Source: a virus
Lineage: Duplodnaviria > Caudoviricetes
Direction: 5' to 3' (one strand)
Virus record (IMG/VR): IMGVR_UViG_3300042691_038938
Length of the DNA: 64,000 bases
Part shown: positions 11,470 to 64,000 of the stretch, piece after piece
Position numbering within the stretch: the first letter of the stretch is position 1
Layout: the number at the start of each line of letters is the position of its first letter
Program-made: the position numbers and the translations under genes
Notes under the pieces: model-generated
What the model saw: only the letters and a program-made list of their open reading frames with translations
Told to the model about the DNA's origin: nothing
Databases searched by the model: none

Positions 11470-12540
11470 TTAATTTATGACTTTTTCATGTAAGCGGTCT
11501 ACATAATTAACATAGTTATCCACGAAGTGAACGTACGCTTGCTTCAAACCTGTGTCATCACACTCTTTCAAGTATTTATAGATCTCAATAAAATCATCTA
11601 AGTTATCAAAAGAAAAAGTCTTACATAAGAACTCAAACTTGTAGGATACTGGGATCATCCCAAAGATCATGGCTTCAAAGACTCTTGCCGGAATGAATTG
11701 AGCAGTATCATACTTGTCTTTAGTCACGTTTATCATTAAGGTTGAGATCTCGAGCATCTCCCATATGCCTGCTCTATCGTTTCTTGGAACGTGTGCTGCA
11801 GTTTTCTCATGGCCTGAATAATCTGATGCTTTACAGATCAAAGCTAATGTCGATCTTGCGTCGTTATTCGATTCAATCCAATCTATCACTTCGCCAAGAA
11901 TAGCATTCTTTGAGTTTCCTGCCTTGTACTTGGAAGTATCGATATTTCCATAAAAGACGCTCACATGACTAGAATAGTCCTTAGTCGCTAAGTTTATCTC
12001 AACACACTCCTTTAAGAACCTGTTAGATATTCCTGGAAAGTCTATCGATGGAACAGATATTGTGACTTTATGTGAAAATTTTTCAAAGAAGGAATCAGGT
12101 AGGGAGAGATCAGTGTCCAAGATGACGATCTGTTCTTTAGAGTATCCGCTATCAATTGCAGTCTGAATGATTATTTCAAAGTCTCTAGCGTCCTTCCATT
12201 TTTTAGCTAGAGTGGAAAGGTTTCTAAATCTAGCCTTTAAGAAAAGCTTAGAATATTTGATTGACTTAATATCCTCAACAACAGTTTCTATTCGATGAAT
12301 CGGAGAATCAAAGAGGTCAGCTCGATATCCAGCAAAAAGCCTACCTAATGGAGTGTCTGGGAAACCACTTAGTTTAGCCGACTTAATTACATCGTCTGGA
12401 TAATAACTGTAAAAATCGAATTTTTCACAATTAAAAGTCTCTTTTATTGAATCGACCAGCCCTATCTGATAGAGGCTGTGTCCGGGAGAATCAATGTCAT
12501 GTAGATCAAGTAGACCAAAATACGCGTATAATGCTTTCAT
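11470..12540 (-). CDS. GT-B glycosyltransferase, like T4 DNA beta-glucosyltransferase
   Basis: By-eye match to T4 BGT: ILDTDLSLP ~ LFTDIRLP; VFYGN ~ VIYGG; KDKYDTAQFIPARVFEAM ~ DKNYNDNFITLRVWETM; FDNLDDFIE ~ VNNRAELID. Length 356 aa. Confidence 0.65.
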   Translation of the reverse strand: MKALYAYFGLLDLHDIDSPGHSLYQIGLVDSIKETFNCEKFDFYSYYPDDVIKSAKLSGFPDTPLGRLFAGYRADLFDSPIHRIETVVEDIKSIKYSKLFLKARFRNLSTLAKKWKDARDFEIIIQTAIDSGYSKEQIVILDTDLSLPDSFFEKFSHKVTISVPSIDFPGISNRFLKECVEINLATKDYSSHVSVFYGNIDTSKYKAGNSKNAILGEVIDWIESNNDARSTLALICKASDYSGHEKTAAHVPRNDRAGIWEMLEISTLMINVTKDKYDTAQFIPARVFEAMIFGMIPVSYKFEFLCKTFSFDNLDDFIEIYKYLKECDDTGLKQAYVHFVDNYVNYVDRLHEKVIN

Positions 12541-12543
12541 ATC

Positions 12544-12969
12544 TTATTTTACTGGATTTTCAGCTTGGGTTCTGGCCCAAGCCAAGTATTTTGCTAGGAC
12601 TCCATCAGTTGGATTCACCTCAAGGTTGCCCTTCATAAAGATCTCCCATGAGTCCTGCGCATACTTGCCTATTCCATATAGTTCTTTAGGTTCTTGCCAA
12701 TTGAGTGTGAGCCAGTCACTTGAGAAGCGTTTGATGGTGTTTGTACGACGGTTCCTAAAGCCCAATGGCGCCAGGAGCTCAGCCATCTCATTAAGATCGG
12801 CTCTTTCCGCTTCTGACGGATCCGGATATCTCTTAAAGAATTCGTCTCTTACCCTGTCTACTTGCTTTCTGGAGGTACAGTTTAACATGATACAACAAAC
12901 GAGCACCCGCCATGGGTGCTCGTTGTAGATCTCTTGAAGAAGCAGGTAGGGGCTTACTTGCTTAATCAT
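12544..12969 (-). CDS. MBD4-like HhH DNA glycosylase (T/U:G mismatch)
   Basis: PWRVLVCCIMLNCTS, YP..., LLAPLG, ELYGIGKYAQDSW (catalytic Asp kept) and V.PTDGVL.KY..W are colinear with the MBD4 catalytic domain. Confidence 0.85.
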   Translation of the reverse strand: MIKQVSPYLLLQEIYNEHPWRVLVCCIMLNCTSRKQVDRVRDEFFKRYPDPSEAERADLNEMAELLAPLGFRNRRTNTIKRFSSDWLTLNWQEPKELYGIGKYAQDSWEIFMKGNLEVNPTDGVLAKYLAWARTQAENPVK

Positions 12970-13762
12970 TTTTGATCGCCACTACGTGAGTGATAAAATT
13001 CTTTCCATATTCCACTGCATCAATCTTTCTCACAACGTCAAAGTTGTTCTCAAGTATGGAAATTATCTCTTGAAACTTTTGTACGCGATTTGCTTTAAGA
13101 GGCTTGTACATGAAGTGATATTCAACGATAAAGACTCTGATATTTGACCAGTCAGTGACTGCCTTGATCAGTTCATACTCAGCACCCTCAACGTCCATCT
13201 TGATGGCAGTCGCTCCATGATTAGCGATAGCATCGTTAATGTTTATTGCAGGAAGGTGCATCACTTCCCTTCCTCTGATCGGAAGTATAGAGTGTTTTCC
13301 AGAATCAGTTGAGATGAAGAAGTCAATAGTCTCTTCATTTCCTGGGACTATTGCCTTTTGGACCACTTCACACTCTGCTCCAACGTTGTTGATCGCGATG
13401 TTCTCGATCGCAAAGGAAGCATTATGTGGCAACGCTTCATATGCTAAGATCTTTTTTATCCTAGGAAATTGCTTTGCCATTCTTACTGCAAAGAGTCCGA
13501 TATGGCCTCCAACGTCCAACCAAGTATCCTCTTGATTGAAGACTGCATTCACGTCCATTTCAGGACCGTATGCAGCTGAGGTTAGCGGCTTGATGTATTC
13601 CCCACTCTTTGGGCTCTTTGAGACATTCGTACTCACATTGTACTGTATCTCATTTAGCCCTTTTCTAATGTAGAACTGAAAGTCCGCGTATCTCGTCTTC
13701 CAATCAATGAGTTCTATTTGATTGAATTTTTGAGCTGTCTTAAAATCGATTCGAGTATCCAT
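12962..13762 (-). CDS. FkbM-family SAM-dependent methyltransferase
   Basis: WLDVGGHIGLF, AYEALPHN, IKMDVEGAEYELI. Confidence 0.88.
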   Translation of the reverse strand: MDTRIDFKTAQKFNQIELIDWKTRYADFQFYIRKGLNEIQYNVSTNVSKSPKSGEYIKPLTSAAYGPEMDVNAVFNQEDTWLDVGGHIGLFAVRMAKQFPRIKKILAYEALPHNASFAIENIAINNVGAECEVVQKAIVPGNEETIDFFISTDSGKHSILPIRGREVMHLPAININDAIANHGATAIKMDVEGAEYELIKAVTDWSNIRVFIVEYHFMYKPLKANRVQKFQEIISILENNFDVVRKIDAVEYGKNFITHVVAIKND

Positions 13763-13774
13763 TAACTAACTTTT

Positions 13775-14059
13775 CTATTTTTGTACTTCGTTAGTCGTTT
13801 TAGTTTCGAGTCTTCCTTTTTTTACCCTCTCAACTCTAAGAGTGCTTCCAGTAAGAACCGTTGCAATTTTGACGTTTTCTCGCTTTGAGATGTAACTTAA
13901 TGCCGCACGAATGTTAGTCGCTTCTTGCTTACCTGAGATTCCAGAAATCTCAAAGTAGTTGCCTAATTGCATCTTAGTTAAACGGTCTTTTAGGATTCGG
14001 TGACGAGAGTCTGTCCTTTTTGCCTTTTGAATCGGGCCGATCACAATTGAATTTTTCAT
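13775..14059 (-). CDS. small basic protein, possibly DNA-binding
   Basis: 94 aa, K/R-rich; first gene of the methyltransferase-glycosylase-glycosyltransferase operon. Confidence 0.6.
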   Translation of the reverse strand: MKNSIVIGPIQKAKRTDSRHRILKDRLTKMQLGNYFEISGISGKQEATNIRAALSYISKRENVKIATVLTGSTLRVERVKKGRLETKTTNEVQK

Positions 14060-14071
14060 AGAAAATAATTT

Positions 14072-14082
14072 ATTTTTGATTA
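14072..14082 (-). promoter_or_regulatory. TATAAT-type -10 element (early or middle promoter candidate)
   Basis: Minus strand TAGTATAATA in the AT-rich gap upstream of 14059; no late TAAATA motif here. Confidence 0.4.
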
Positions 14083-14124
14083 TTATACTACGAAAAAACC
14101 TAAATTAAAAATTTTACAATGATT

Positions 14125-54513: not shown

Positions 54514-57500
54514 CTAGATGAATTTAATTTTTATCTTTGGACTGATTGACAATCCTTTTCCAGGTTTTTTACTGAAATTGAATTTTAACACCAATCTTTC
54601 TCTTTTATTTATTTGCAAAGCCTTTAGTAGATCGTAGCCTTGAGTAAAGCGTTGTTGATCATTTAAAAAGACAAACTCTATCGTATTTGGATTGGTCTGC
54701 GACTGTGTGATCGTTGACACTAGTGATGCGTTTTCCTTGAAGAAAAAAGCATTTTCATAGATCTCGTAAAGCTTAAGAATATTTGCATCGGTGTATGCTC
54801 TAACATAATCTTCGATAGAATTAAAGTTTCCGATATACTCGTTAGAGTTTATGAGGAATTCATTAAACTTAGCTGAGATTCCGTCCTCAATAAAGTATCG
54901 AGTTAAAGCGTTACTCACATTGATATAGCCTTCTACTTGTATTGGAGTCTCCTTCACCACCATCTCTACTTGATCAATGTCTATTGTTGAGAGATCTGCG
55001 TTCTCCGCTACATTTACTACTTGAAAGTTTTCAAGCTCAATGAATTCAGGTAGAGTTATTAACTTTGAGACAAATGATTCGTCCTCTTCTACTCTAAGAG
55101 CACCGGATACTGGAGAATACTGATTCTTATTTGAATATCTAAAATGGAACCCCCAATCCCAGTTTCCTCTAAGCAAGAAGTAATCAGCTTGGCCTATTGC
55201 TATCTCATTGATTCGTTGATATTTAGCGTCATATGTGTCATCTGATTCAAGTTCAAGTATCGCGTTATCTGCGACTTTAATGTGATTGAAATTATGCACA
55301 GTAAAGATAGAACTAATGTTTCCATTTAATTTAACATTTCCTAGTTCAAGATCAGCTATTTGATTTTTAGTGAAAGTGAAATTAGATTTAAAGGATATTG
55401 AGTTTCTAACGATCGGTTCATACTCTCCTTTATATCTATTTAAGATGTATGTACTAGGTAAAGTAGCCAATTCATAATCAAAACCTATTGAGTCTAATTG
55501 TGAAAACTGGACAGGTACTCTTTCTGTAGGAATAGAGATTACTTGATTGATCTTCTCAATTCCGCTCTGATCTAATATCTCAAGATAAAAATTAGGATTA
55601 CTTGACAATACTGGATTGCCTGTTGAATCCAATGAATAAGAATAGTATTCAATGAATGGATCTAGTGAATTTATGTATTGTTTAAATCGACCAAAGGATA
55701 TTTTTTCGAATAGTTTTTCAAAGTATTTTTCTCCACCAGAAACGATTCTAAAGATGTAATAACTATTGATTAGAGAAGTTGATCCAGTCGGCAAGACGTT
55801 GTAAGGACTTACGTAATCTGGCGGAACGTTAGATGGTGTGCTCAAGCCTAATGAAGTCGTAGAATCATAGATTAAAAACTGTTCAGCAGACCCTGCGATC
55901 GGGCTTAAGCTTTGAGGATTTATTCCTACAAATTCATCAATAAACAGATCGAAACCTGTCACAAGATCACGTATCGTTATAAACGTTGAAGTTGTGGGCA
56001 TGGACACGTCGTCAGTTAAGAATCCTGAATAGTTTGGCGTGTTATTATTTTTAAGTCTCTTTATTGTTCCGTCACCAGGAATACCGTTCGCTAACGAAAG
56101 CTTTGATCCCATTTTTATGGTAGAAAAGTTATTCAAGATGACGTTGTACTTCTTATTCTTTAAGGAATAGAGAAGAGTATGAGTCAAGTTAGATACTGAA
56201 TTTGAATCAAATGAAACTCGATAGTCTCCATTTATGCTTTCAAATGGAAGGACGGATCCTAACTCAGTAACATATGTTGGGTTTGAGTAGTTTTGGTTGT
56301 TCACAGTAGTTAAAGTCGGAACCGCTTGTACCTCTTTCCAATAATTCTCTATGTCTGCGATTTGACCTATTGCTATCTCAATCACGACAACGATGAATTT
56401 AAACTCCTGATGCTCTATCACTTTATATTTGATAGGGGGCTGAGTTTGATCTAATATGTTCTCTTTTACTGGTTTAAGTATGCAGCTAAACTTATAATCT
56501 TCAAACCTTGTCGTAGAATCTTTAGCTACTGGCTTACCGTCTGCCCCAAATACATTGGGATCAGTCACATCCTTTAGCGTTAATTTAAAGCCTTTAAAGA
56601 ATGCCTCGTACTGTCCAGCCCTATTCTTAAAGACGTTTGAGTAACGAATTTGAGTTTCACCTACCTCGTTTCCAGAGAAAGTTGGAGTATACGTAAAATA
56701 ATTTATGAAATAATCAGGATCAGACAAGAGTAGAGTCTCATCAAGAGGATTGTCAAAATAATTAGAATTTAATTTAATAGTCGACTCATCATTCGTATAG
56801 TTAAACTTACTCTCTATATAGAACCACTCATGAGTAAAGTTTACTGGATTCTGAGTCCTGTCCTCATGGTCAGGAGAAAAGTTGTTTCGACTAAAGATTA
56901 ACTCAGTATTTAATCGATAAGGATTGTCTCTAGAATCTTTACCGTTTTTGATTCCCCACTTAGTGATGTATGGAATGATCTTTGATCTAAGAGCAAAATC
57001 AAGACTCTCGTTCTCCTTGTAGTAATCGTATTCAGTTTGAGTAACCCCGTTAAGATATTTTAGCCTAAGCTTGTATTCTTCGCTATCGTTTTGAGGAACC
57101 ACTTTTTCAGGATCCTTAAGTAACGAGAATCCTGGGAAATTAATTAGCTCTTCGTTTTGATCATTGATTGGAGCTACTAGACTTGCACCAGCCGTTGTGA
57201 TGTCGCTAGAATATCTAACAAGAGGTGAACCACTAACTGTTTTGTATTTGGTGAGAATCGTAACAGTAAAGGAAGTGCCGTTTGTATAATTTGATATAGT
57301 TCCGTCATTTACTTGAATCTCACCACCAATAACAGTATATTCTATTCCAGGCTCAAGCAGATTAGCTCCTTCTGGAATAAAGTAGTAGTTGTATAAGTCG
57401 ATCTCTGGAAAATTAGTATAGAGGCTGCTATAAAAATCAAAGTCAATGTCCTTTATTGGAAAGAACGATAAGAATCCAAACGACGGTCTAAATTTAGGCC

Positions 57501-59727
57501 TCATCACGAATTCTTTGTAAGCAATCGTAGGGGACTCATTCTCCTCCAAGACCACGACAATCTTTTCAAGGTAAGAATTGATGGCATTCGTTCTAAGAGA
57601 CTTACTAAGCTGATTCTCCTCAGTGATTAGATCGATGTATGGAGAAACCTTTCTTATCTTTGACCAACTATCTGATGATTTCACCAAGATTGAATCAAAG
57701 GATTGATTTATTTTGTTTAAGTGTTGGGCATCAAAGATTAAACGATTTCCCTTCTCCTTTGATCCTCCAGAAAAATTAAATAGCTGTCCAGCAACCTGTG
57801 AACCTGTTATAAAGTCTATCTCCATCGCGGAGTAGTCGGCTGCTGATAATGAGACTTTATGTAGAAGATCAAAGTCACCAGCCGCATTTGCTTTAATGAA
57901 GACTCGATCTTCATATAGGTATGCAGTAAAGGTTCTATTTCGTATTAGATTAAGAGCGGAAGTCAATGCACTCGCGATCTCATTCTTCTCACCAGTCCCA
58001 TTGATATAGAAAACATCGTATCCTACTACTCCATCATAGTCGTTGAATCCATAATAATCTCCAGGATTGGGCACAAGTCCATAGTTGTTAGCTATGGTGA
58101 TCAAATCATGTTTACCGTTTGAGTCTACTCTAGTTCCGTTTGGGTGGTATATCCTAAACTCATCATAATTTGTGAGAGTTGAATTTATCTTGATCCCAAT
58201 GTGAGAATAGCCAGGAACCTTTGTTGACTCTCCTTGGTCCTGTAAGAAAAGAATCCTGCTTTGTCCAAAAAAGAGGCCAAGGTCTATTTTTTTATTAGAG
58301 AATCTAAATTGCCCAGTATTCAATTCTTTGACTGATGTGCTAGTAGAAGTCAACGGGTCCACTATGTTGAATGAACTAATATATGAAAACTGATCATCAT
58401 TCAACTTAACAACCAGGAATTCACCTGAATAGCCCGAGTCTGGACTAACAATAGTTATTAGATCGTCAGTCTCATACCCGTGAGAGGTTAGAGAGGCAGT
58501 AACCAGGTTACCTGATCTAATAAGCTCAGTTAATCTAGGCGAGGAATAGTCTGGAGTGTACGGATCTGTTAATTTAGGTAGATAAAGCTTACCGTCCTTA
58601 TCATTAATATAGGTCAAGTACATTGAATCAAGATCAGAGAATAAATCATTGAATTCTGAGATCTTAAGTTCCAAGTTCTTATATGGAATTATTACACCGT
58701 CTGGGTTTTCTTGATAGACAGATACCTCATCTGTCTCAAGATAAGTCTTACGAAGCCTAGGAGTATTTTCCCAAGTAAGACGAGTATCGTAACCTCTCTT
58801 TAAGTCAATGTCCAGCTTTGATAGCTCAATGGTATTGACGTAAAATCCTACGTATCTATTGAAATCATATTTTTCAGAAGAATCATCATTAAAGACGAAT
58901 TCAAGGTTTAGGATGTTCGGAAAGATCACGCCGGTCCTAGAATAGCCATTCGTTATGTTTTCTTCAAAGAATTTTAGAGGAGATGATGTCCTATAAAAAT
59001 CATAGAGTAATTCTCCCTTAGATCCAAATGATCCCTCGTTTATTATTATTCCGTTCCACGTAGTAAAATCGTCTTGACCAAATGCCACACTGAGCGGGCT
59101 TGTAGGAAAATTGATGTCAGTTACGTAATCTCTAATATATTTCCCAGCCTTAGTTTCAGGACGTAAATCAAAGGTTTTAATTATCGTTGACTTCTTGAAT
59201 AGGTCCAGCATGTATTCTCCATTGCTCTGACCTGATTCATAATTCTGACGGATATCATCAAGAGGAAAGTTCGCAGGATCGTTTATCTTTAAGATCACGA
59301 AAAAATTAGGTATCTTATCCCTAAGATATAAGGGAGCTAGATATGAAAGCCTCTCAGTATATTTCTTAGATGCAAGATATTTTGCTCCACTAAAATAGTG
59401 AGAAAAATCAAATTGGTCCTTGAAATTCTTTGAAGTTTTTGTCGTGTCTACGTTTTCAGAAAGATCAAAGATTATTTCGTTAGGCGTAGTTCCTCCCTTG
59501 AAGAAACGAAAGATGTTTAATGGGTGAGAGATGTTAGAATCAATAGGAAACTTTGAATATGAATCCTTTGATAGCTCTTGATTTGCTTTTATTGATTCTA
59601 ACCATAATTCACCAGCCTCGTCTATCGCTATCTTTATGTTTCCTGTTAATTTTGGATTAGTCCTAACTAATCCAAAGCTAGAGTCATCAGTTAAAAGCTT
59701 AGTATAGAGTAAATTGCGATCTCTCAT
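54514..59727 (-). CDS. very large baseplate or tail structural protein
   Basis: 1737 aa, beta-rich, in the structural block; no recognisable enzyme motif. Confidence 0.65.
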   Translation of the reverse strand: MRDRNLLYTKLLTDDSSFGLVRTNPKLTGNIKIAIDEAGELWLESIKANQELSKDSYSKFPIDSNISHPLNIFRFFKGGTTPNEIIFDLSENVDTTKTSKNFKDQFDFSHYFSGAKYLASKKYTERLSYLAPLYLRDKIPNFFVILKINDPANFPLDDIRQNYESGQSNGEYMLDLFKKSTIIKTFDLRPETKAGKYIRDYVTDINFPTSPLSVAFGQDDFTTWNGIIINEGSFGSKGELLYDFYRTSSPLKFFEENITNGYSRTGVIFPNILNLEFVFNDDSSEKYDFNRYVGFYVNTIELSKLDIDLKRGYDTRLTWENTPRLRKTYLETDEVSVYQENPDGVIIPYKNLELKISEFNDLFSDLDSMYLTYINDKDGKLYLPKLTDPYTPDYSSPRLTELIRSGNLVTASLTSHGYETDDLITIVSPDSGYSGEFLVVKLNDDQFSYISSFNIVDPLTSTSTSVKELNTGQFRFSNKKIDLGLFFGQSRILFLQDQGESTKVPGYSHIGIKINSTLTNYDEFRIYHPNGTRVDSNGKHDLITIANNYGLVPNPGDYYGFNDYDGVVGYDVFYINGTGEKNEIASALTSALNLIRNRTFTAYLYEDRVFIKANAAGDFDLLHKVSLSAADYSAMEIDFITGSQVAGQLFNFSGGSKEKGNRLIFDAQHLNKINQSFDSILVKSSDSWSKIRKVSPYIDLITEENQLSKSLRTNAINSYLEKIVVVLEENESPTIAYKEFVMRPKFRPSFGFLSFFPIKDIDFDFYSSLYTNFPEIDLYNYYFIPEGANLLEPGIEYTVIGGEIQVNDGTISNYTNGTSFTVTILTKYKTVSGSPLVRYSSDITTAGASLVAPINDQNEELINFPGFSLLKDPEKVVPQNDSEEYKLRLKYLNGVTQTEYDYYKENESLDFALRSKIIPYITKWGIKNGKDSRDNPYRLNTELIFSRNNFSPDHEDRTQNPVNFTHEWFYIESKFNYTNDESTIKLNSNYFDNPLDETLLLSDPDYFINYFTYTPTFSGNEVGETQIRYSNVFKNRAGQYEAFFKGFKLTLKDVTDPNVFGADGKPVAKDSTTRFEDYKFSCILKPVKENILDQTQPPIKYKVIEHQEFKFIVVVIEIAIGQIADIENYWKEVQAVPTLTTVNNQNYSNPTYVTELGSVLPFESINGDYRVSFDSNSVSNLTHTLLYSLKNKKYNVILNNFSTIKMGSKLSLANGIPGDGTIKRLKNNNTPNYSGFLTDDVSMPTTSTFITIRDLVTGFDLFIDEFVGINPQSLSPIAGSAEQFLIYDSTTSLGLSTPSNVPPDYVSPYNVLPTGSTSLINSYYIFRIVSGGEKYFEKLFEKISFGRFKQYINSLDPFIEYYSYSLDSTGNPVLSSNPNFYLEILDQSGIEKINQVISIPTERVPVQFSQLDSIGFDYELATLPSTYILNRYKGEYEPIVRNSISFKSNFTFTKNQIADLELGNVKLNGNISSIFTVHNFNHIKVADNAILELESDDTYDAKYQRINEIAIGQADYFLLRGNWDWGFHFRYSNKNQYSPVSGALRVEEDESFVSKLITLPEFIELENFQVVNVAENADLSTIDIDQVEMVVKETPIQVEGYINVSNALTRYFIEDGISAKFNEFLINSNEYIGNFNSIEDYVRAYTDANILKLYEIYENAFFFKENASLVSTITQSQTNPNTIEFVFLNDQQRFTQGYDLLKALQINKRERLVLKFNFSKKPGKGLSISPKIKIKFI

Positions 59728-59745
59728 GAATCATGTAAATTTTTA

Positions 59746-62700
59746 TTAGAAGCTAGATCGAACTCCTCTACTTTGAACTAATGGCGAGTCTAATGATGTC
59801 TCTTTGATGTATTGAGCATCCACCTTAAGGTCAAAGGAAAAAGGAGACTCATCTTTAATGATGATGTCGATTCCAATCTTCTTAGAATATTTTATATTAG
59901 TTAAAGTAGATGTGGTTCTATATCCACCAACATATCCTAACTTGTCCGACGCTCTAAACTGAAAGAGCACAGGAATGTTTATTGAGTTTTCTTCGCCAAA
60001 CTTGATGATTTTACTTGATCTTGCTGGAAAATTACCCTCAACTGATACTGATTCATAGTTTGTAGGATACATGTAAAGATATGCTCCACATGTATACTTT
60101 CCTACCAAGTACTTATCATTGTTTTTAAATCCTAGTTTGATTGGATAATGAGAATCGTCTTTATCTGTTACGTTATTTGTAGGAATGACTGGTGTTGTTC
60201 TACTTGCTTGCTTGTAATATTCTACACCAAAGGCATTTGTATTCTCTGAAGTAGAGGTCTCAAAGTGTAGTGCATGAGAAAAAGGTAAGTATTCCTGGTT
60301 AGCGGTTAATGGAATTGCTAAACTCGATCCAAAATCAGGTCTAAACACTTCTGCAATATTACCTATCGCAAAAGAGGGTCCACACAATGTTGGAATCTCA
60401 GGATGATCTTTACTTACGCAAAACTCAGTAAGATATCCACCGCCGTTTGCTGTGACCGGAATCGCACTAGTCGTTCCATTCCAAATTCTAGAGTCAGTAG
60501 ATGTTCCTGTTACACCAGAATATTGTGGATTGAATGGAAGGTAGTGTCCCCAGTTAACCGGCACAAAGTTAGTAGTGTTAACTGTTTGTCCCTGATAAGT
60601 ATAGGCAGCTGTAAAATAAGTACCAAAACCAGTCGAAGGATCGCCTGGAGAATATACTTCTTCAGAAAGTCCATAGTCTCTTACTCTTGAATGAATAAAC
60701 TGACTCATTACCTGACCTGATTGAGCGCCTGCTCTCTGCTTAAAGTTTCCTAGTTGAGGAGTCGGATTTGAGTTTACTCCGATAGGAACGATATCGTATC
60801 TTCTATTGACATGATAGTCATTGTCTGGGTTACCGCTTGGGTTAGACGTAGTCGAAAGTTGGCCTATTCCTCCAAAGAGAAGAGAAACTAGTTCTAAGTT
60901 AGTAGCAGAAGTGTTTTGTATTGAAACTGCGTACTGTTTAGTAATTATATCTCCCTCATTGTAAATCACAGTCCCACCGGTCGTGTCCTTAATTAAGTCT
61001 TTATAGAATCCTCCAAATAGAGATATTGTATCTCCATTAGAAACGTCTAAGGAGTTTCCTTCAGAATCTATCACCCGAACCTTTATTGCTCCACGATCAG
61101 TAGTGATAGACTGTTGAATTCCATCCAGCGTTGCCTGTAGAGACTTTAGCTTTTGATATAGATCAACGACATTTCCTTCACTTGTGAAAAAGCCGCTTGA
61201 TATGTCTTCTGCAATGTGAGAATAAAACTTATCTCCCTGAGTAAATTGATTTGCAGTATGAATATCAAGACCCTTAGAATTCAAATTATTTTCAAAGTCT
61301 ATCCTAACCTTTTCAGCAAAAGCTTTTTGTGAGACTAACGTAGCCTCTTCTTCAGATTGAATTGAAGCTGGAAACTGTATTTGAACTGAATTTGACCATA
61401 CTGATTCCACTGGATTAGTCGGCCATCCTGCCTCAGAAAGAGACTTTACTTGGATCTCAACTATCTCTCCTTTACGAATAGGTATGCTTAACTGATTTGT
61501 GTTTACTGCGTCTGCGTCATTTAAGATCTCATCTACCCAAACATATAAACCTGTTTCAGGATCCAACTCTTTTACTCGAGGTCTAGTAAGTTCCTCTGTC
61601 CATGGAGAAAAAGTAGCAGTCTTGGTAGCTCCATCGCTATCAATGAATGGCTGCTGAGTAGCATTAGGTTGAGTGCCGCTTAGACTTAAGTAACGATATC
61701 TATACTTGAATTGAACGACTTGTTGAGGTCCATACTTTGTGACCTTTGCGTCTGGAATCTGCCAAAATCCTCGAACTCTATATTTTTTCTTTACGATAAA
61801 TTGAGGAGTCGTTGAAAGTTGTAAACTAATATTATTAACTAGTGTAGAAAGAGCGGTGACTTTTTCATTCCTAGAATTTAGTGACTGAGTTAACTGTTTT
61901 TGTAAACGCTTGGCTTCCTTGTCAGTTTTAGCAACTGTTGTGATGGTTGATTTAATTGAATCAATTTTCTTATTTAATTCATCAACTTCTTGCTGTAAAG
62001 CCGCTTTTTCTTTTATGTTGTTATTTAACTCTGTGACGTTTTTATCATCTTGAATGTGAGCATCTACCTGTATTACTGAGAAATTACTCTCAAATAAGTT
62101 TGGAGAAGAAGGAATCTCACCAATGATCGTAGGAACAGTTTTTTCCTTAGCTAAGTTCAATAGAATCAGTCCAAAGTCAGAAACAAAATTATTGTAATAG
62201 TCCTCTAAAGTAGATGAGCTATTGTCTACTAACGGAATTGTAAGCTCGTTTGTGTATACTCCAAAACCTTTTGAAAAGCCATCAATCGTTAAGTTCTTTG
62301 CTTTACTTACTGGCTTTACAAATATCACCTCACGTTCGTTGAATCCAACGTTTACTGGAAGCTCAGGAACCCTATATGGAGAAGGTTTTACTCGTAAAAT
62401 GCTTGCACCTATCGTGATCGCGTCTGTTCCAAAGATCTTTTCAAGAACGACTTCAGTATCAGTAGTGCTGATTGATGCGACTCTATATTCAGAATCACCA
62501 GTGGTGATTAGTACATCACCAATTGATAGAAACTTTGTGTTTTGTACTCCAGCGACGATATCAGTATAGTTTAGAGTACTAAGCTTATATCTTCTTCTTA
62601 CTGTAGAAACAGTCTGTCCACTAGTAAGAGTCTGATTTCCCTCTTCCTCAAGTATCTTTATCACATCGAATGATCCTTGATATCTATTGACTGCTACCGC

Positions 62701-63324
62701 TAGGTCAACAACAGTATCATCCTCAAAATAATCGATTGCATTTTCATCTAAATCTAGCTTTAACGCATCGACATTGATGTTGTTACTTCCTTTGTAATTA
62801 GTATCAAAGAAAGCAGCTGCATCATCATCATTTGCTGCGTTGATTATGATTCTTTTGACTACGAATTGATCGATATCATCAGTTAAGATTGAAGTGATAT
62901 CTACATTCACATAGAGAAGAGGATTCAGGAAAGATTCAAAGAACCAGTTGTTCTTTACTTTAAATGAGTTAGGAACGGTGAACGTTGAATTTTGAACCTG
63001 CTCTAGGTCTTGTATCAGCTGTGAAGTCTTTTTTAATTCAAACTTACGAACGTCTCCGTTTGAAGACTTGATACCGATCACATCACTGTTTGCTGAGATT
63101 AAGACATCAAACTTAGAGTTAATGTCTTCGATCTTTCCTTTTAGGTAGCCAAATGATGGAACAGTTATATTCACAGCACTGCCGTCTGACTTAGTTTGAG
63201 AGACCGTTACGTTTTCTGATTGTGACTCAAGGATGTTCTGTAAGCTATACAAGAATGAGTTCATGTTGTCGATGTCAACAACAAGTCTCTGTAAAACGTC
63301 AGATAGAGTATGTTTAGTATCCAT
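59746..63324 (-). CDS. large baseplate or tail structural protein with coiled coil and Fn3-like segment
   Basis: 1192 aa; heptad region; EIQVKSLSEAGWP...SVWS Fn3-like motif. Confidence 0.65.
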   Translation of the reverse strand: MDTKHTLSDVLQRLVVDIDNMNSFLYSLQNILESQSENVTVSQTKSDGSAVNITVPSFGYLKGKIEDINSKFDVLISANSDVIGIKSSNGDVRKFELKKTSQLIQDLEQVQNSTFTVPNSFKVKNNWFFESFLNPLLYVNVDITSILTDDIDQFVVKRIIINAANDDDAAAFFDTNYKGSNNINVDALKLDLDENAIDYFEDDTVVDLAVAVNRYQGSFDVIKILEEEGNQTLTSGQTVSTVRRRYKLSTLNYTDIVAGVQNTKFLSIGDVLITTGDSEYRVASISTTDTEVVLEKIFGTDAITIGASILRVKPSPYRVPELPVNVGFNEREVIFVKPVSKAKNLTIDGFSKGFGVYTNELTIPLVDNSSSTLEDYYNNFVSDFGLILLNLAKEKTVPTIIGEIPSSPNLFESNFSVIQVDAHIQDDKNVTELNNNIKEKAALQQEVDELNKKIDSIKSTITTVAKTDKEAKRLQKQLTQSLNSRNEKVTALSTLVNNISLQLSTTPQFIVKKKYRVRGFWQIPDAKVTKYGPQQVVQFKYRYRYLSLSGTQPNATQQPFIDSDGATKTATFSPWTEELTRPRVKELDPETGLYVWVDEILNDADAVNTNQLSIPIRKGEIVEIQVKSLSEAGWPTNPVESVWSNSVQIQFPASIQSEEEATLVSQKAFAEKVRIDFENNLNSKGLDIHTANQFTQGDKFYSHIAEDISSGFFTSEGNVVDLYQKLKSLQATLDGIQQSITTDRGAIKVRVIDSEGNSLDVSNGDTISLFGGFYKDLIKDTTGGTVIYNEGDIITKQYAVSIQNTSATNLELVSLLFGGIGQLSTTSNPSGNPDNDYHVNRRYDIVPIGVNSNPTPQLGNFKQRAGAQSGQVMSQFIHSRVRDYGLSEEVYSPGDPSTGFGTYFTAAYTYQGQTVNTTNFVPVNWGHYLPFNPQYSGVTGTSTDSRIWNGTTSAIPVTANGGGYLTEFCVSKDHPEIPTLCGPSFAIGNIAEVFRPDFGSSLAIPLTANQEYLPFSHALHFETSTSENTNAFGVEYYKQASRTTPVIPTNNVTDKDDSHYPIKLGFKNNDKYLVGKYTCGAYLYMYPTNYESVSVEGNFPARSSKIIKFGEENSINIPVLFQFRASDKLGYVGGYRTTSTLTNIKYSKKIGIDIIIKDESPFSFDLKVDAQYIKETSLDSPLVQSRGVRSSF

Positions 63325-63332
63325 TTATCTTC

Positions 63333-64000
63333 TTATCTTATTTTGTCCACTCTAAAGGTGAATAGTGTGCTGTCCAAACAGATTATGTCAAAAATAGGGG
63401 CATTTTGAGAAGGGGTGAAATCAAGATCAGTAAGGACTGATATTAGGACACCATATTCTCCGTTATTGCTCCTATTTAGAGCATCTGTGTATATCTTAAC
63501 GTCATAGACGCTAGGTTCTAATTGATCTTCAAAGACTAGTCTTAATATCTGACCTTTTCTCCATTCAAACTTAGTATCGTCTATGAATATCTGAAGATCT
63601 CTTGAAAGAACTATCGGCGTTCCTGAGTTCTGATGAACATAATAGTTCGTGAAAGTAGATAACTCAAGAACATTGTTTGTGAACACGTTTCTCAATGAGG
63701 TATCAGATATGTTATAGTATTGTGTCGAATTGATTATTCTAGCAATATTTGGAGTTCGACGGTCGACTGATATGCCCAATCCTGGTCGAATTGCATCTAG
63801 ATCATATGACACAGTAACATTAGTGTCTCCATTTAAGATAGAATCAAGCTTAGTATTAGTATTGTCTATCATGTTCATGATCACACCAGTGTTATCAAAT
63901 ATCGCTTGATTTTCGATTAATGAAGTCTCCAAATCAGTTATCCTAGCTGAAAGTTCAGCTGAATTAGTATCATTGAGCATGAGATCTTTAAGATTATTGA
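63333..64000 (-). CDS. structural protein, 5' part outside the window
   Basis: The frame stays open from 63980 to the window end (..NNLKDLMLND..). Confidence 0.65.
   Translation of the reverse strand, partial: NNLKDLMLNDTNSAELSARITDLETSLIENQAIFDNTGVIMNMIDNTNTKLDSILNGDTNVTVSYDLDAIRPGLGISVDRRTPNIARIINSTQYYNISDTSLRNVFTNNVLELSTFTNYYVHQNSGTPIVLSRDLQIFIDDTKFEWRKGQILRLVFEDQLEPSVYDVKIYTDALNRSNNGEYGVLISVLTDLDFTPSQNAPIFDIICLDSTLFTFRVDKIR

Follow-up and report, generated by a model that had tools for sequence, protein, structure and literature searches.

The locus examined here raises the question of which acceptor is served by a phage gene pair that combines a glycosyltransferase with an FkbM-type methyltransferase, and what a DNA glycosylase gene placed between the two has to do with it. 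The locus lies in the IMG/VR virus record IMGVR_UViG_3300042691_038938, of which a stretch of 64,000 nucleotides (the window) was analysed. The phage is a large uncultured freshwater T4-like (jumbo) phage, and its clade is widespread. Its four-gene unit encodes the small protein s94, the methyltransferase MT266, the MBD4-like glycosylase HhH141 and the glycosyltransferase GT356. Sugar-modified 5-hydroxymethylcytosine (5hmC) is a classic phage shield against restriction and CRISPR. Since the same genome encodes T4-type enzymes for the conversion of cytosine to 5hmC, the probable role of the unit is to decorate and maintain the modified DNA of the phage, perhaps by adding a methylated sugar that has not been described so far. 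To the reading that the four genes act as a three-step whole on the phage's own 5hmC DNA, we assign a probability of about 0.45.

A sequence-only reading of the locus had supposed that this phage carries a modified cytosine, and genes for making one were indeed found in the same phage. The window itself contains no thymidylate-synthase homologue. The adjoining DNA was reached by an outward walk of five exact-protein look-ups, each step overlapping the previous one at 100%, and the contig k141_3012498 of ENA ERZ27247975 is 100% identical to window positions 55194-64000 over 8,807 bases. In the DNA reached in this way, the phage encodes a 290-amino-acid thymidylate-synthase homologue (L132:11972-12844) with the sequences KDFVCT and MRSNDVILGLPTD, which remains far under the thymidylate-synthase equivalog cut-offs (66 versus 327 bits). 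It has the exchanges L143D and N177D, together with C146 and a kept D169. In thymidylate-synthase homologues, N177D gives specificity for deoxycytidine monophosphate (dCMP), L143D/E accompanies hydroxymethyl and not methyl products, and D169N is the mark of 5-hydroxy-dCMP synthases (PMC13326640). By the criteria of that study, the combination of L143D, D169 and N177D is therefore the pattern of T4 gp42, the 5-hydroxymethyl-dCMP synthase, and according to this residue signature the protein is neither a thymidylate synthase nor a 5-hydroxy-dCMP synthase. About 10 kb before the gp42-type gene lies the gene of a gp56-like deoxycytidine triphosphatase (dCTPase; L132:1163-1630), which is 33% identical to T4 gp56 over 111 amino acids (E 8e-19), and a dCMP deaminase gene follows two genes beyond the gp42-type gene on the same contig. 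Thus, with these three genes the genome appears to encode the T4-type machinery that replaces cytosine by 5hmC, and this nucleotide-level pathway should put 5hmC in place of cytosine in the phage DNA.

The same equipment is found in related phages. Among the relatives, all seven with a completeness of at least 81% possess both a canonical ThyA and a divergent gp42-type gene (~300 amino acids), and in the divergent protein of four relatives we read D-F-V-C-T and R-S-N-D...P-T-D, which corresponds to L143D, a kept D169 and N177D. In one relative of 70% completeness (G001), the gp42-type gene is the only match to the thymidylate-synthase family. The gp56-like gene is present in five of five large relatives, and GT356 occurs as a single copy in each of them. 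Searches of these five genomes gave nothing for MazG or a trimeric dUTPase, and no member of the T4 beta-glucosyltransferase (BGT) family PF09198 was found in them, the latter search being made without a positive control. A search in the reverse direction, for GT356 in 13 IMG/VR contigs with a gp42-type gene, found none although the positive control worked; it is uninformative, because all of these contigs are at most 54% complete and ~85-95 kb separate the two genes.

Some further features of this part of the genome may be mentioned here. The canonical ThyA of several relatives (L007, L095-L120), encoded ~10-13 kb downstream of the glycosyltransferase, contains large in-frame insertions, so that the open reading frames (ORFs) measure 358-450 amino acids, and in one case 631, versus ~265 normally. 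Beyond window position 64000, a T4-like replication and nucleotide module was found (L126, L128, L130, L132; k141_3012498). It includes UvdE, UvsX/RecA-like, DnaB, gp46/47-like nucleases, a class I ribonucleotide reductase, and homologues of GroEL and GroES, as well as a PolB that is split into a 244-amino-acid exonuclease gene and a 472-amino-acid polymerase gene, and a 92-amino-acid Hc1 protein (chlamydial histone H1-like, PF07432). A second DNA glycosylase of this phage, of the Nei/Fpg type, is encoded at L132:20759-21526.

The unit itself (Table 1) is compact. Going from s94 to GT356, the ORF list gives spacings of 12 nt (gap), 8 nt (overlap) and 3 nt (gap), and within the octamer GTATAATA the minus strand reads TATAAT at 14082-14087. 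The earlier description of four tightly packed genes behind a TATAAT-type element is thereby reproduced, with identical spacings from the ORF list and the sequence. When the upstream 85 nt of eleven relatives were aligned, GTATAATA was invariant in ten of them amid drifting flanks, and a hairpin with a T-run precedes it in most of the relatives aligned. GTATAATA occurs three times in the window, where chance predicts 2.2 copies, and therefore it is not a reiterated promoter of the surrounding genes. Being kept amid drifting flanks and not being reiterated, it makes the four genes look like a self-contained transcription unit behind a putative promoter. A scan for sigma-70 promoters was uninformative (11 sites versus 9.4 expected).

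Table 1. Genes of the four-gene unit and its upstream element (window positions; ORF, open reading frame; aa, amino acids; SAM, S-adenosylmethionine; hmC, 5-hydroxymethylcytosine)
Feature	Position	Strand	Description
GTATAATA promoter-like octamer	14081-14088	-	22 nt upstream of s94 ATG
s94	13775-14059	-	ORF, 94 aa; first gene of unit
MT266	12962-13762	-	ORF, 266 aa; FkbM-family SAM-dependent methyltransferase
HhH141	12544-12969	-	ORF, 141 aa; stand-alone MBD4-type HhH-GPD DNA glycosylase domain
GT356	11470-12540	-	ORF, 356 aa; orphan glycosyltransferase with GT-B fold; candidate for glycosylation of hmC in DNA

Four metatranscriptome studies of rivers or freshwater yielded small RNA-library contigs that match s94 and the methyltransferase gene with 95-100% likeness. 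They span window positions 12863-14032, and none extends upstream of 14032. This limit is compatible with a transcript start near GTATAATA, and the contigs give a weak hint of expression of the two genes, DNA carry-over being possible in either case. Their absence from the glycosylase and glycosyltransferase genes is no evidence in either direction, because the runs were found via the highly conserved methyltransferase sequence and may contain carried-over DNA. Among 50,697 GenBank phage records, neither the region (megablast) nor GT356 (tblastn) found a match, and an exact 40-mer of the window had no match in the JGI metagenome contigs. For the region 11470-14059, the best DNA matches in public runs are labelled 'fungus metagenome' (2019), which is an odd label for a phage of freshwater bacteria; others come from lake, freshwater and aquatic metagenomes.

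The layout of the unit is kept across a large phage clade. Using a glycosyltransferase profile, 80 IMG/VR loci with 38-78% identity were gathered, in which the genes follow the order g664, g648, (g254), (s94), methyltransferase, (glycosylase), glycosyltransferase, ..., g636, g285. The pair of methyltransferase and glycosyltransferase is syntenic in ~90 IMG/VR contigs, down to 38% identity. As the same order recurs in about 90 independent viral contigs, the packing seen in the single sequence reflects more than chance. The glycosylase gene is present in about half of the related loci; these belong to both deep branches, and its place is always between the other two genes. The gene of s94, likewise detected in about half of the 80 loci, precedes the methyltransferase there, mostly where the glycosyltransferase identity is at least ~50%. 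The protein s94 is basic (isoelectric point 10.7) and has no match in Pfam, PHROG or NCBIfam; in the protein atlas it is assigned to unnamed viral clusters only, with scores <0.9 that are below the trust threshold.

The linkage within the pair is not symmetrical. A search from the side of the methyltransferase, which is better conserved than any other gene of the unit, yielded 59 orthologue loci (at least 44% identity, followed by a gap to at most 33%). In 57 of these, the glycosyltransferase follows directly downstream, one locus runs out of DNA and one methyltransferase stands alone (L193), which amounts to adjacency in 57 of 58 loci. Vice versa, the methyltransferase is missing nearby in three of the 80 glycosyltransferase loci (L057, L083, L090) and also in the vicinity of a distant family member (L217). 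The methyltransferase is thus close to obligately linked to the glycosyltransferase, but not the other way round, and this is the pattern expected if the methyltransferase acts downstream. L090, where the glycosyltransferase occupies its usual site without the methyltransferase, and L193, whose methyltransferase orthologue (44%) has other neighbours and no glycosyltransferase beside it, originate from the same IMG/VR sample (3300028602), and gene movement may have separated the pair in this lineage. No methyltransferase or glycosylase was found near two distant relatives of GT356 (P0315, P0325), whose contigs are short and offer too little context.

What kind of enzymes are encoded is clearest for the glycosylase, where the earlier MBD4-like assignment holds. 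In a phmmer search of the PDB, HhH141 matches the MBD4 glycosylase domains 4ew4 and 1ngn with E 6.6e-28 (100.8 bits, query residues 6-132 aligned to residues 9-136 of the 4ew4 chain). The next PDB family, Nth/MIG, follows only at E 0.012, and PF00730 is matched with 27.5 bits versus a cut-off of 26.2. From these alignments, HhH141 is unambiguously homologous to the entire MBD4 catalytic domain. In common with the mammalian domains, it possesses the HhH sequence G-I-G-K-Y, the catalytic Asp and a conserved Gln on the N-terminal side. The catalytic Asp106, located in G-I-G-K-Y-A-Q-D-S-W after the HhH motif, is kept in 20 of 21 phage family members. In the remaining one (L053:3609-4034), Ala takes its place (AAASW) in an intact ORF, and this protein, by its sequence, may be an inactive or binding-only variant. 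Unlike mammalian MBD4, HhH141 consists of 141 amino acids without a methyl-CpG-binding or other second domain. Further differences concern the Arg finger of MBD4 (human R468, the helix-inserting Arg), in whose place 19 of the 21 phage members have Cys, and the position placed as human Tyr540 (a Tyr of the pocket), which is Trp in the phage family. The MBD4 domains in the PDB that are closest to HhH141 were reportedly solved with DNA containing 5-hydroxymethyluracil (5hmU). A terminator scan also picked up a perfect hairpin at 12898-12924 (minus strand; 11-bp stem, 7 G-C pairs) inside the glycosylase coding sequence, where it covers the conserved N-E-H-P-W-R-V-L-V codons.

The family membership of the methyltransferase stands as it was first assigned, too. 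MT266 exceeds the curated cut-offs of both PF05050 (43.0 versus 22.7 bits) and TIGR01444 (70 versus 37.7 bits) and is, as judged by these profiles, a bona fide member of the FkbM family. Its predicted structure has a class I SAM-methyltransferase fold resembling that of a solved FkbM protein (structure 2py6), from which it differs by an extra N-terminal beta-hairpin. The orthologues of MT266 form a closed, phage-specific group within the family, with identities of at least 44% before the drop to at most 33%. Fold searches with the model returned generic ties among class I methyltransferases and no substrate clue. A complex prediction of MT266 with GT356 scored 0.00, which speaks neither for nor against binding.

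GT356 belongs to no family of Pfam, PHROG or NCBIfam. More than 300 metagenomic relatives exist, and an exhaustive search with a hidden Markov model among 1.84 billion representatives returned 58 proteins, all apparently of the GT356 family, without any bridge to another glycosyltransferase family. The model, built from a 41-sequence alignment, has a predicted local distance difference test score (pLDDT) of 90.9, and confidently predicts a GT-B fold with two Rossmann domains in ~350 amino acids. The most conserved stretch of the family is a basic loop in the acceptor-side domain, K102-A-R-F-R-N-x-S-x-L-x-K...D117. The loop (102-117) is predicted to be disordered, and such a disordered basic loop would suit an induced-fit contact with a polyanion.

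The sequence-only reading had described GT356 as colinear with T4 BGT at four motif blocks. These blocks are visible by eye, namely the N-terminal beta-1 strand, T143-D144-L-S-L-P versus T99-D100-I-R-L-P in BGT (with T-D-L-S-L-P invariant in the GT356 family), VFYGN versus VIYGG, and DKYDTAQFIPARVFEAM versus DKNYNDNFITLRVWETM. However, only the last block was recovered by an alignment program, and not significantly. By inspection, the two proteins have in common the general motif D-K-x-Y...F-I-x-x-R-V-x-E-x-M and also Y-G-G/N. The local hhalign comparison places R286-V-F-E289 of GT356 on R269-V-W-E272 of BGT, with Arg269 and Glu272 being the residues that bind uridine diphosphate (UDP), whereas D144 was matched to the catalytic base Asp100 of BGT by eye only. 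A global hhalign of the family against T4 BGT produced a spurious alignment only, and a profile search of the PDB with GT356 did not return BGT. At the level of the fold, T4 BGT is the top Foldseek match of the GT356 model in the PDB (E 2.2e-6), but many GT4-type enzymes tie with it, HepE and WaaG lying within a factor of three of its E-value. Since the comparison with the BGT-family profile was not significant (HH probability 7%), the label 'BGT-like' is only partly supported by sequence and model.

Taken together with the predicted supply of 5hmC, we propose the following sequence of events. After replication, GT356 would move a sugar from a nucleoside diphosphate sugar of the host to the 5-hydroxymethyl group, like the T4 glucosyltransferases do. 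In this reaction, the invariant D144 of the T-D-x-x-L-P motif would serve as the base, with R286 and E289 holding the nucleotide and the invariant basic loop contacting the DNA. For this glycosylation step alone, we see an even chance or slightly better. The FkbM enzyme, nearly always present and dispensable in a few lineages, would then tailor the product, most likely by O-methylation of the sugar. A sugar hydroxyl is suggested as its putative substrate by gene linkage, and we consider methylation of the sugar doubtful. The MBD4-like glycosylase, optional and encoded in about half of the lineages, would remove the 5hmU that deamination of 5hmC leaves opposite G; a host uracil glycosylase is not expected to remove 5hmU from such a pair. 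The DNA glycosylase gene is translationally coupled between methyltransferase and glycosyltransferase by the overlap on one side and the short gap on the other, which argues for a role of the whole unit on DNA. That virion DNA of the clade carries an O-methylated glycosyl-5-hydroxymethylcytosine, made by the orphan glycosyltransferase and the FkbM enzyme and guarded by the MBD4-type glycosylase, appears rather unlikely to us.

Several observations weigh against an action on 5hmC DNA. A specific kinship of GT356 with T4 BGT, as assumed at first, could not be upheld: PF09198 matches neither GT356 nor any of the 41 family members at E up to 10, and hhalign of a widened family profile against a 28-sequence BGT profile gave a probability of 7% (E 0.005) for a match that spans the C-terminal 100 columns only, i.e. 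the nucleotide-binding motif. Many GT4 enzymes that do not act on DNA equal or beat BGT in Z against the GT356 model. GT356 is acidic (isoelectric point 5.4), T4 BGT is not (9.05). Shared ancestry confounds any conclusion from the joint occurrence of GT356 and the gp42-type gene. The position of the glycosylase could be incidental, since half of the relatives lack it and other repair glycosylases (Nei/Fpg-like) are present in the phage. Finally, no FkbM-family enzyme is known to act on DNA or DNA-linked sugars, and no characterised member is known to be linked to DNA at all. The FkbM proteins of giant viruses, the only ones that full-text literature searches on FkbM and phage DNA modification brought up, are without detectable DNA methylation (PMC7253447).

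Much of this would be expected if the glycosyltransferase and the FkbM enzyme built an O-methylated glycan on something other than DNA, for instance on a protein of the capsid, tail or fibres, on an internal protein that is packaged, or on a polymer of the host envelope, and if the glycosylase were an unrelated repair gene within the same transcription unit. This is the main rival reading, which we regard as less likely. The characterised FkbM enzymes are O-methyltransferases of small molecules and glycans, the nearest folds of GT356 are teichoic-acid, thiol and lipid glycosyltransferases, and the unit sits between conserved large genes. However, no gene for sugar-nucleotide synthesis, for a flippase or export, or for a Ser/Thr-rich acceptor-like protein is coupled to the pair, and the glycosylase, when present, is always found exactly between both genes, translationally coupled, in both deep branches. 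Weak matches to PF13524 (CgeB/YkvP type) in five of the 41 family members do not separate the two possibilities either, because many true T4 BGT homologues carry PF13524 themselves. Moreover, a DNA glycosyltransferase should be required by a phage with 5hmC, whereas the search of five large relatives, made without a positive control, found none of the canonical type. As for the folds, documented phage DNA glycosyltransferases themselves resemble TarM-, BshA- or WaaG-type enzymes (bioRxiv 10.1101/2023.12.21.572611; PMC13326640).

It is also conceivable that the unit acts on DNA but that the methyltransferase addresses the base and not the sugar, either at the 5-hydroxymethyl oxygen, which would give 5-methoxymethylcytosine, or at another nucleobase position. 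Methylation would then be a competitor of glycosylation or a complement to it. O-methylation of hydroxyls is what defines the FkbM family, and both the strong conservation of the methyltransferase and the four loci that have a glycosyltransferase without a methyltransferase nearby would agree with such a role. The generic fold matches of MT266 and the missing precedent for an FkbM enzyme on nucleic acids argue against it, and a step downstream of glycosylation fits better to the fact that all but one of 58 methyltransferase loci have the glycosyltransferase as well, so that we regard base methylation as improbable. Very improbable is a pair whose product or substrate is a soluble small molecule unrelated to DNA or virion, be it a secondary metabolite, a nucleotide-sugar or a nucleotide for signalling: fold-close GT-B enzymes include BshA, MshA, a tetrahydrobiopterin glucosyltransferase and SenB, and FkbM itself is a natural-product methyltransferase, but no other biosynthetic genes are linked, and both the coupling to a DNA glycosylase and the one syntenic site kept over 38-100% identity in a lytic phage clade would be left unexplained.

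The proposed action on 5hmC DNA would be of special interest, since hundreds of environmental phage contigs contain the unit and, according to recent work, the sugar chemistry of phage DNA is far more diverse than that of T4. Compared with the literature searched, three aspects would be new, namely a glycosyltransferase family without a detectable sequence link to any known one, a tailoring methyltransferase from a family never tied to DNA, and a built-in repair glycosylase homologous to mammalian MBD4. If the proposal is true, this would be the first case of an FkbM enzyme acting on a sugar linked to DNA, and also the first report of a methylated sugar in DNA of any kind. If the acceptor is not DNA, the locus would still represent a conserved tailoring pair for virion glycans in a lineage of T4-like jumbo phages. 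A survey of jumbo-phage genomics contained no description of this unit, and two recent surveys of phage DNA glycosylation mention no FkbM protein, O-methylation or linked glycosylase (bioRxiv 10.1101/2023.12.21.572611; PMC13326640).

The closest known counterpart is the 5hmC system of T4. Both combine a gp42-type thymidylate-synthase homologue with the residues L143D, D169 and N177D, a gp56-like dCTPase in the same genome, and a GT-B glycosyltransferase of ~350 amino acids, the one studied here having BGT as its best Foldseek match in the PDB. The R-V-x-E motif of GT356 may correspond to the nucleotide-binding one of T4 BGT and, by inspection, its T-D-x-x-L-P to the place of the catalytic D100. 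Unlike the T4 enzymes, GT356 has no detectable sequence membership in the BGT (PF09198; CAZy GT63) or alpha-glucosyltransferase (AGT) families, its gene lies roughly 95-100 kb from that of the hydroxymethylase and not beside it, and T4 lacks both the methyltransferase and the DNA glycosylase to which GT356 is coupled; GT356 is also acidic where BGT is basic. A second point of comparison is provided by the 5hmC-glycosylating clusters from metaviromes, which consist of methyltransferase, 5mYOX-TET and glycosyltransferase genes and in some cases lie near structural genes (Pyle et al., bioRxiv 10.1101/2023.12.21.572611). As in those clusters, a GT-B enzyme resembling lipopolysaccharide, teichoic-acid or small-molecule glycosyltransferases would have been repurposed for DNA. 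In contrast to them, the 5hmC would be supplied at the nucleotide level by a gp42-type enzyme and not by a C5-methyltransferase together with TET. The arabinosyl-5-hydroxycytosine systems (PMC13326640) resemble the present one in that a thymidylate-synthase homologue supplies the hydroxylated pyrimidine; since D169 is kept here, the predicted product is not 5-hydroxy-dCMP but the hydroxymethylated nucleotide of the T4 type.

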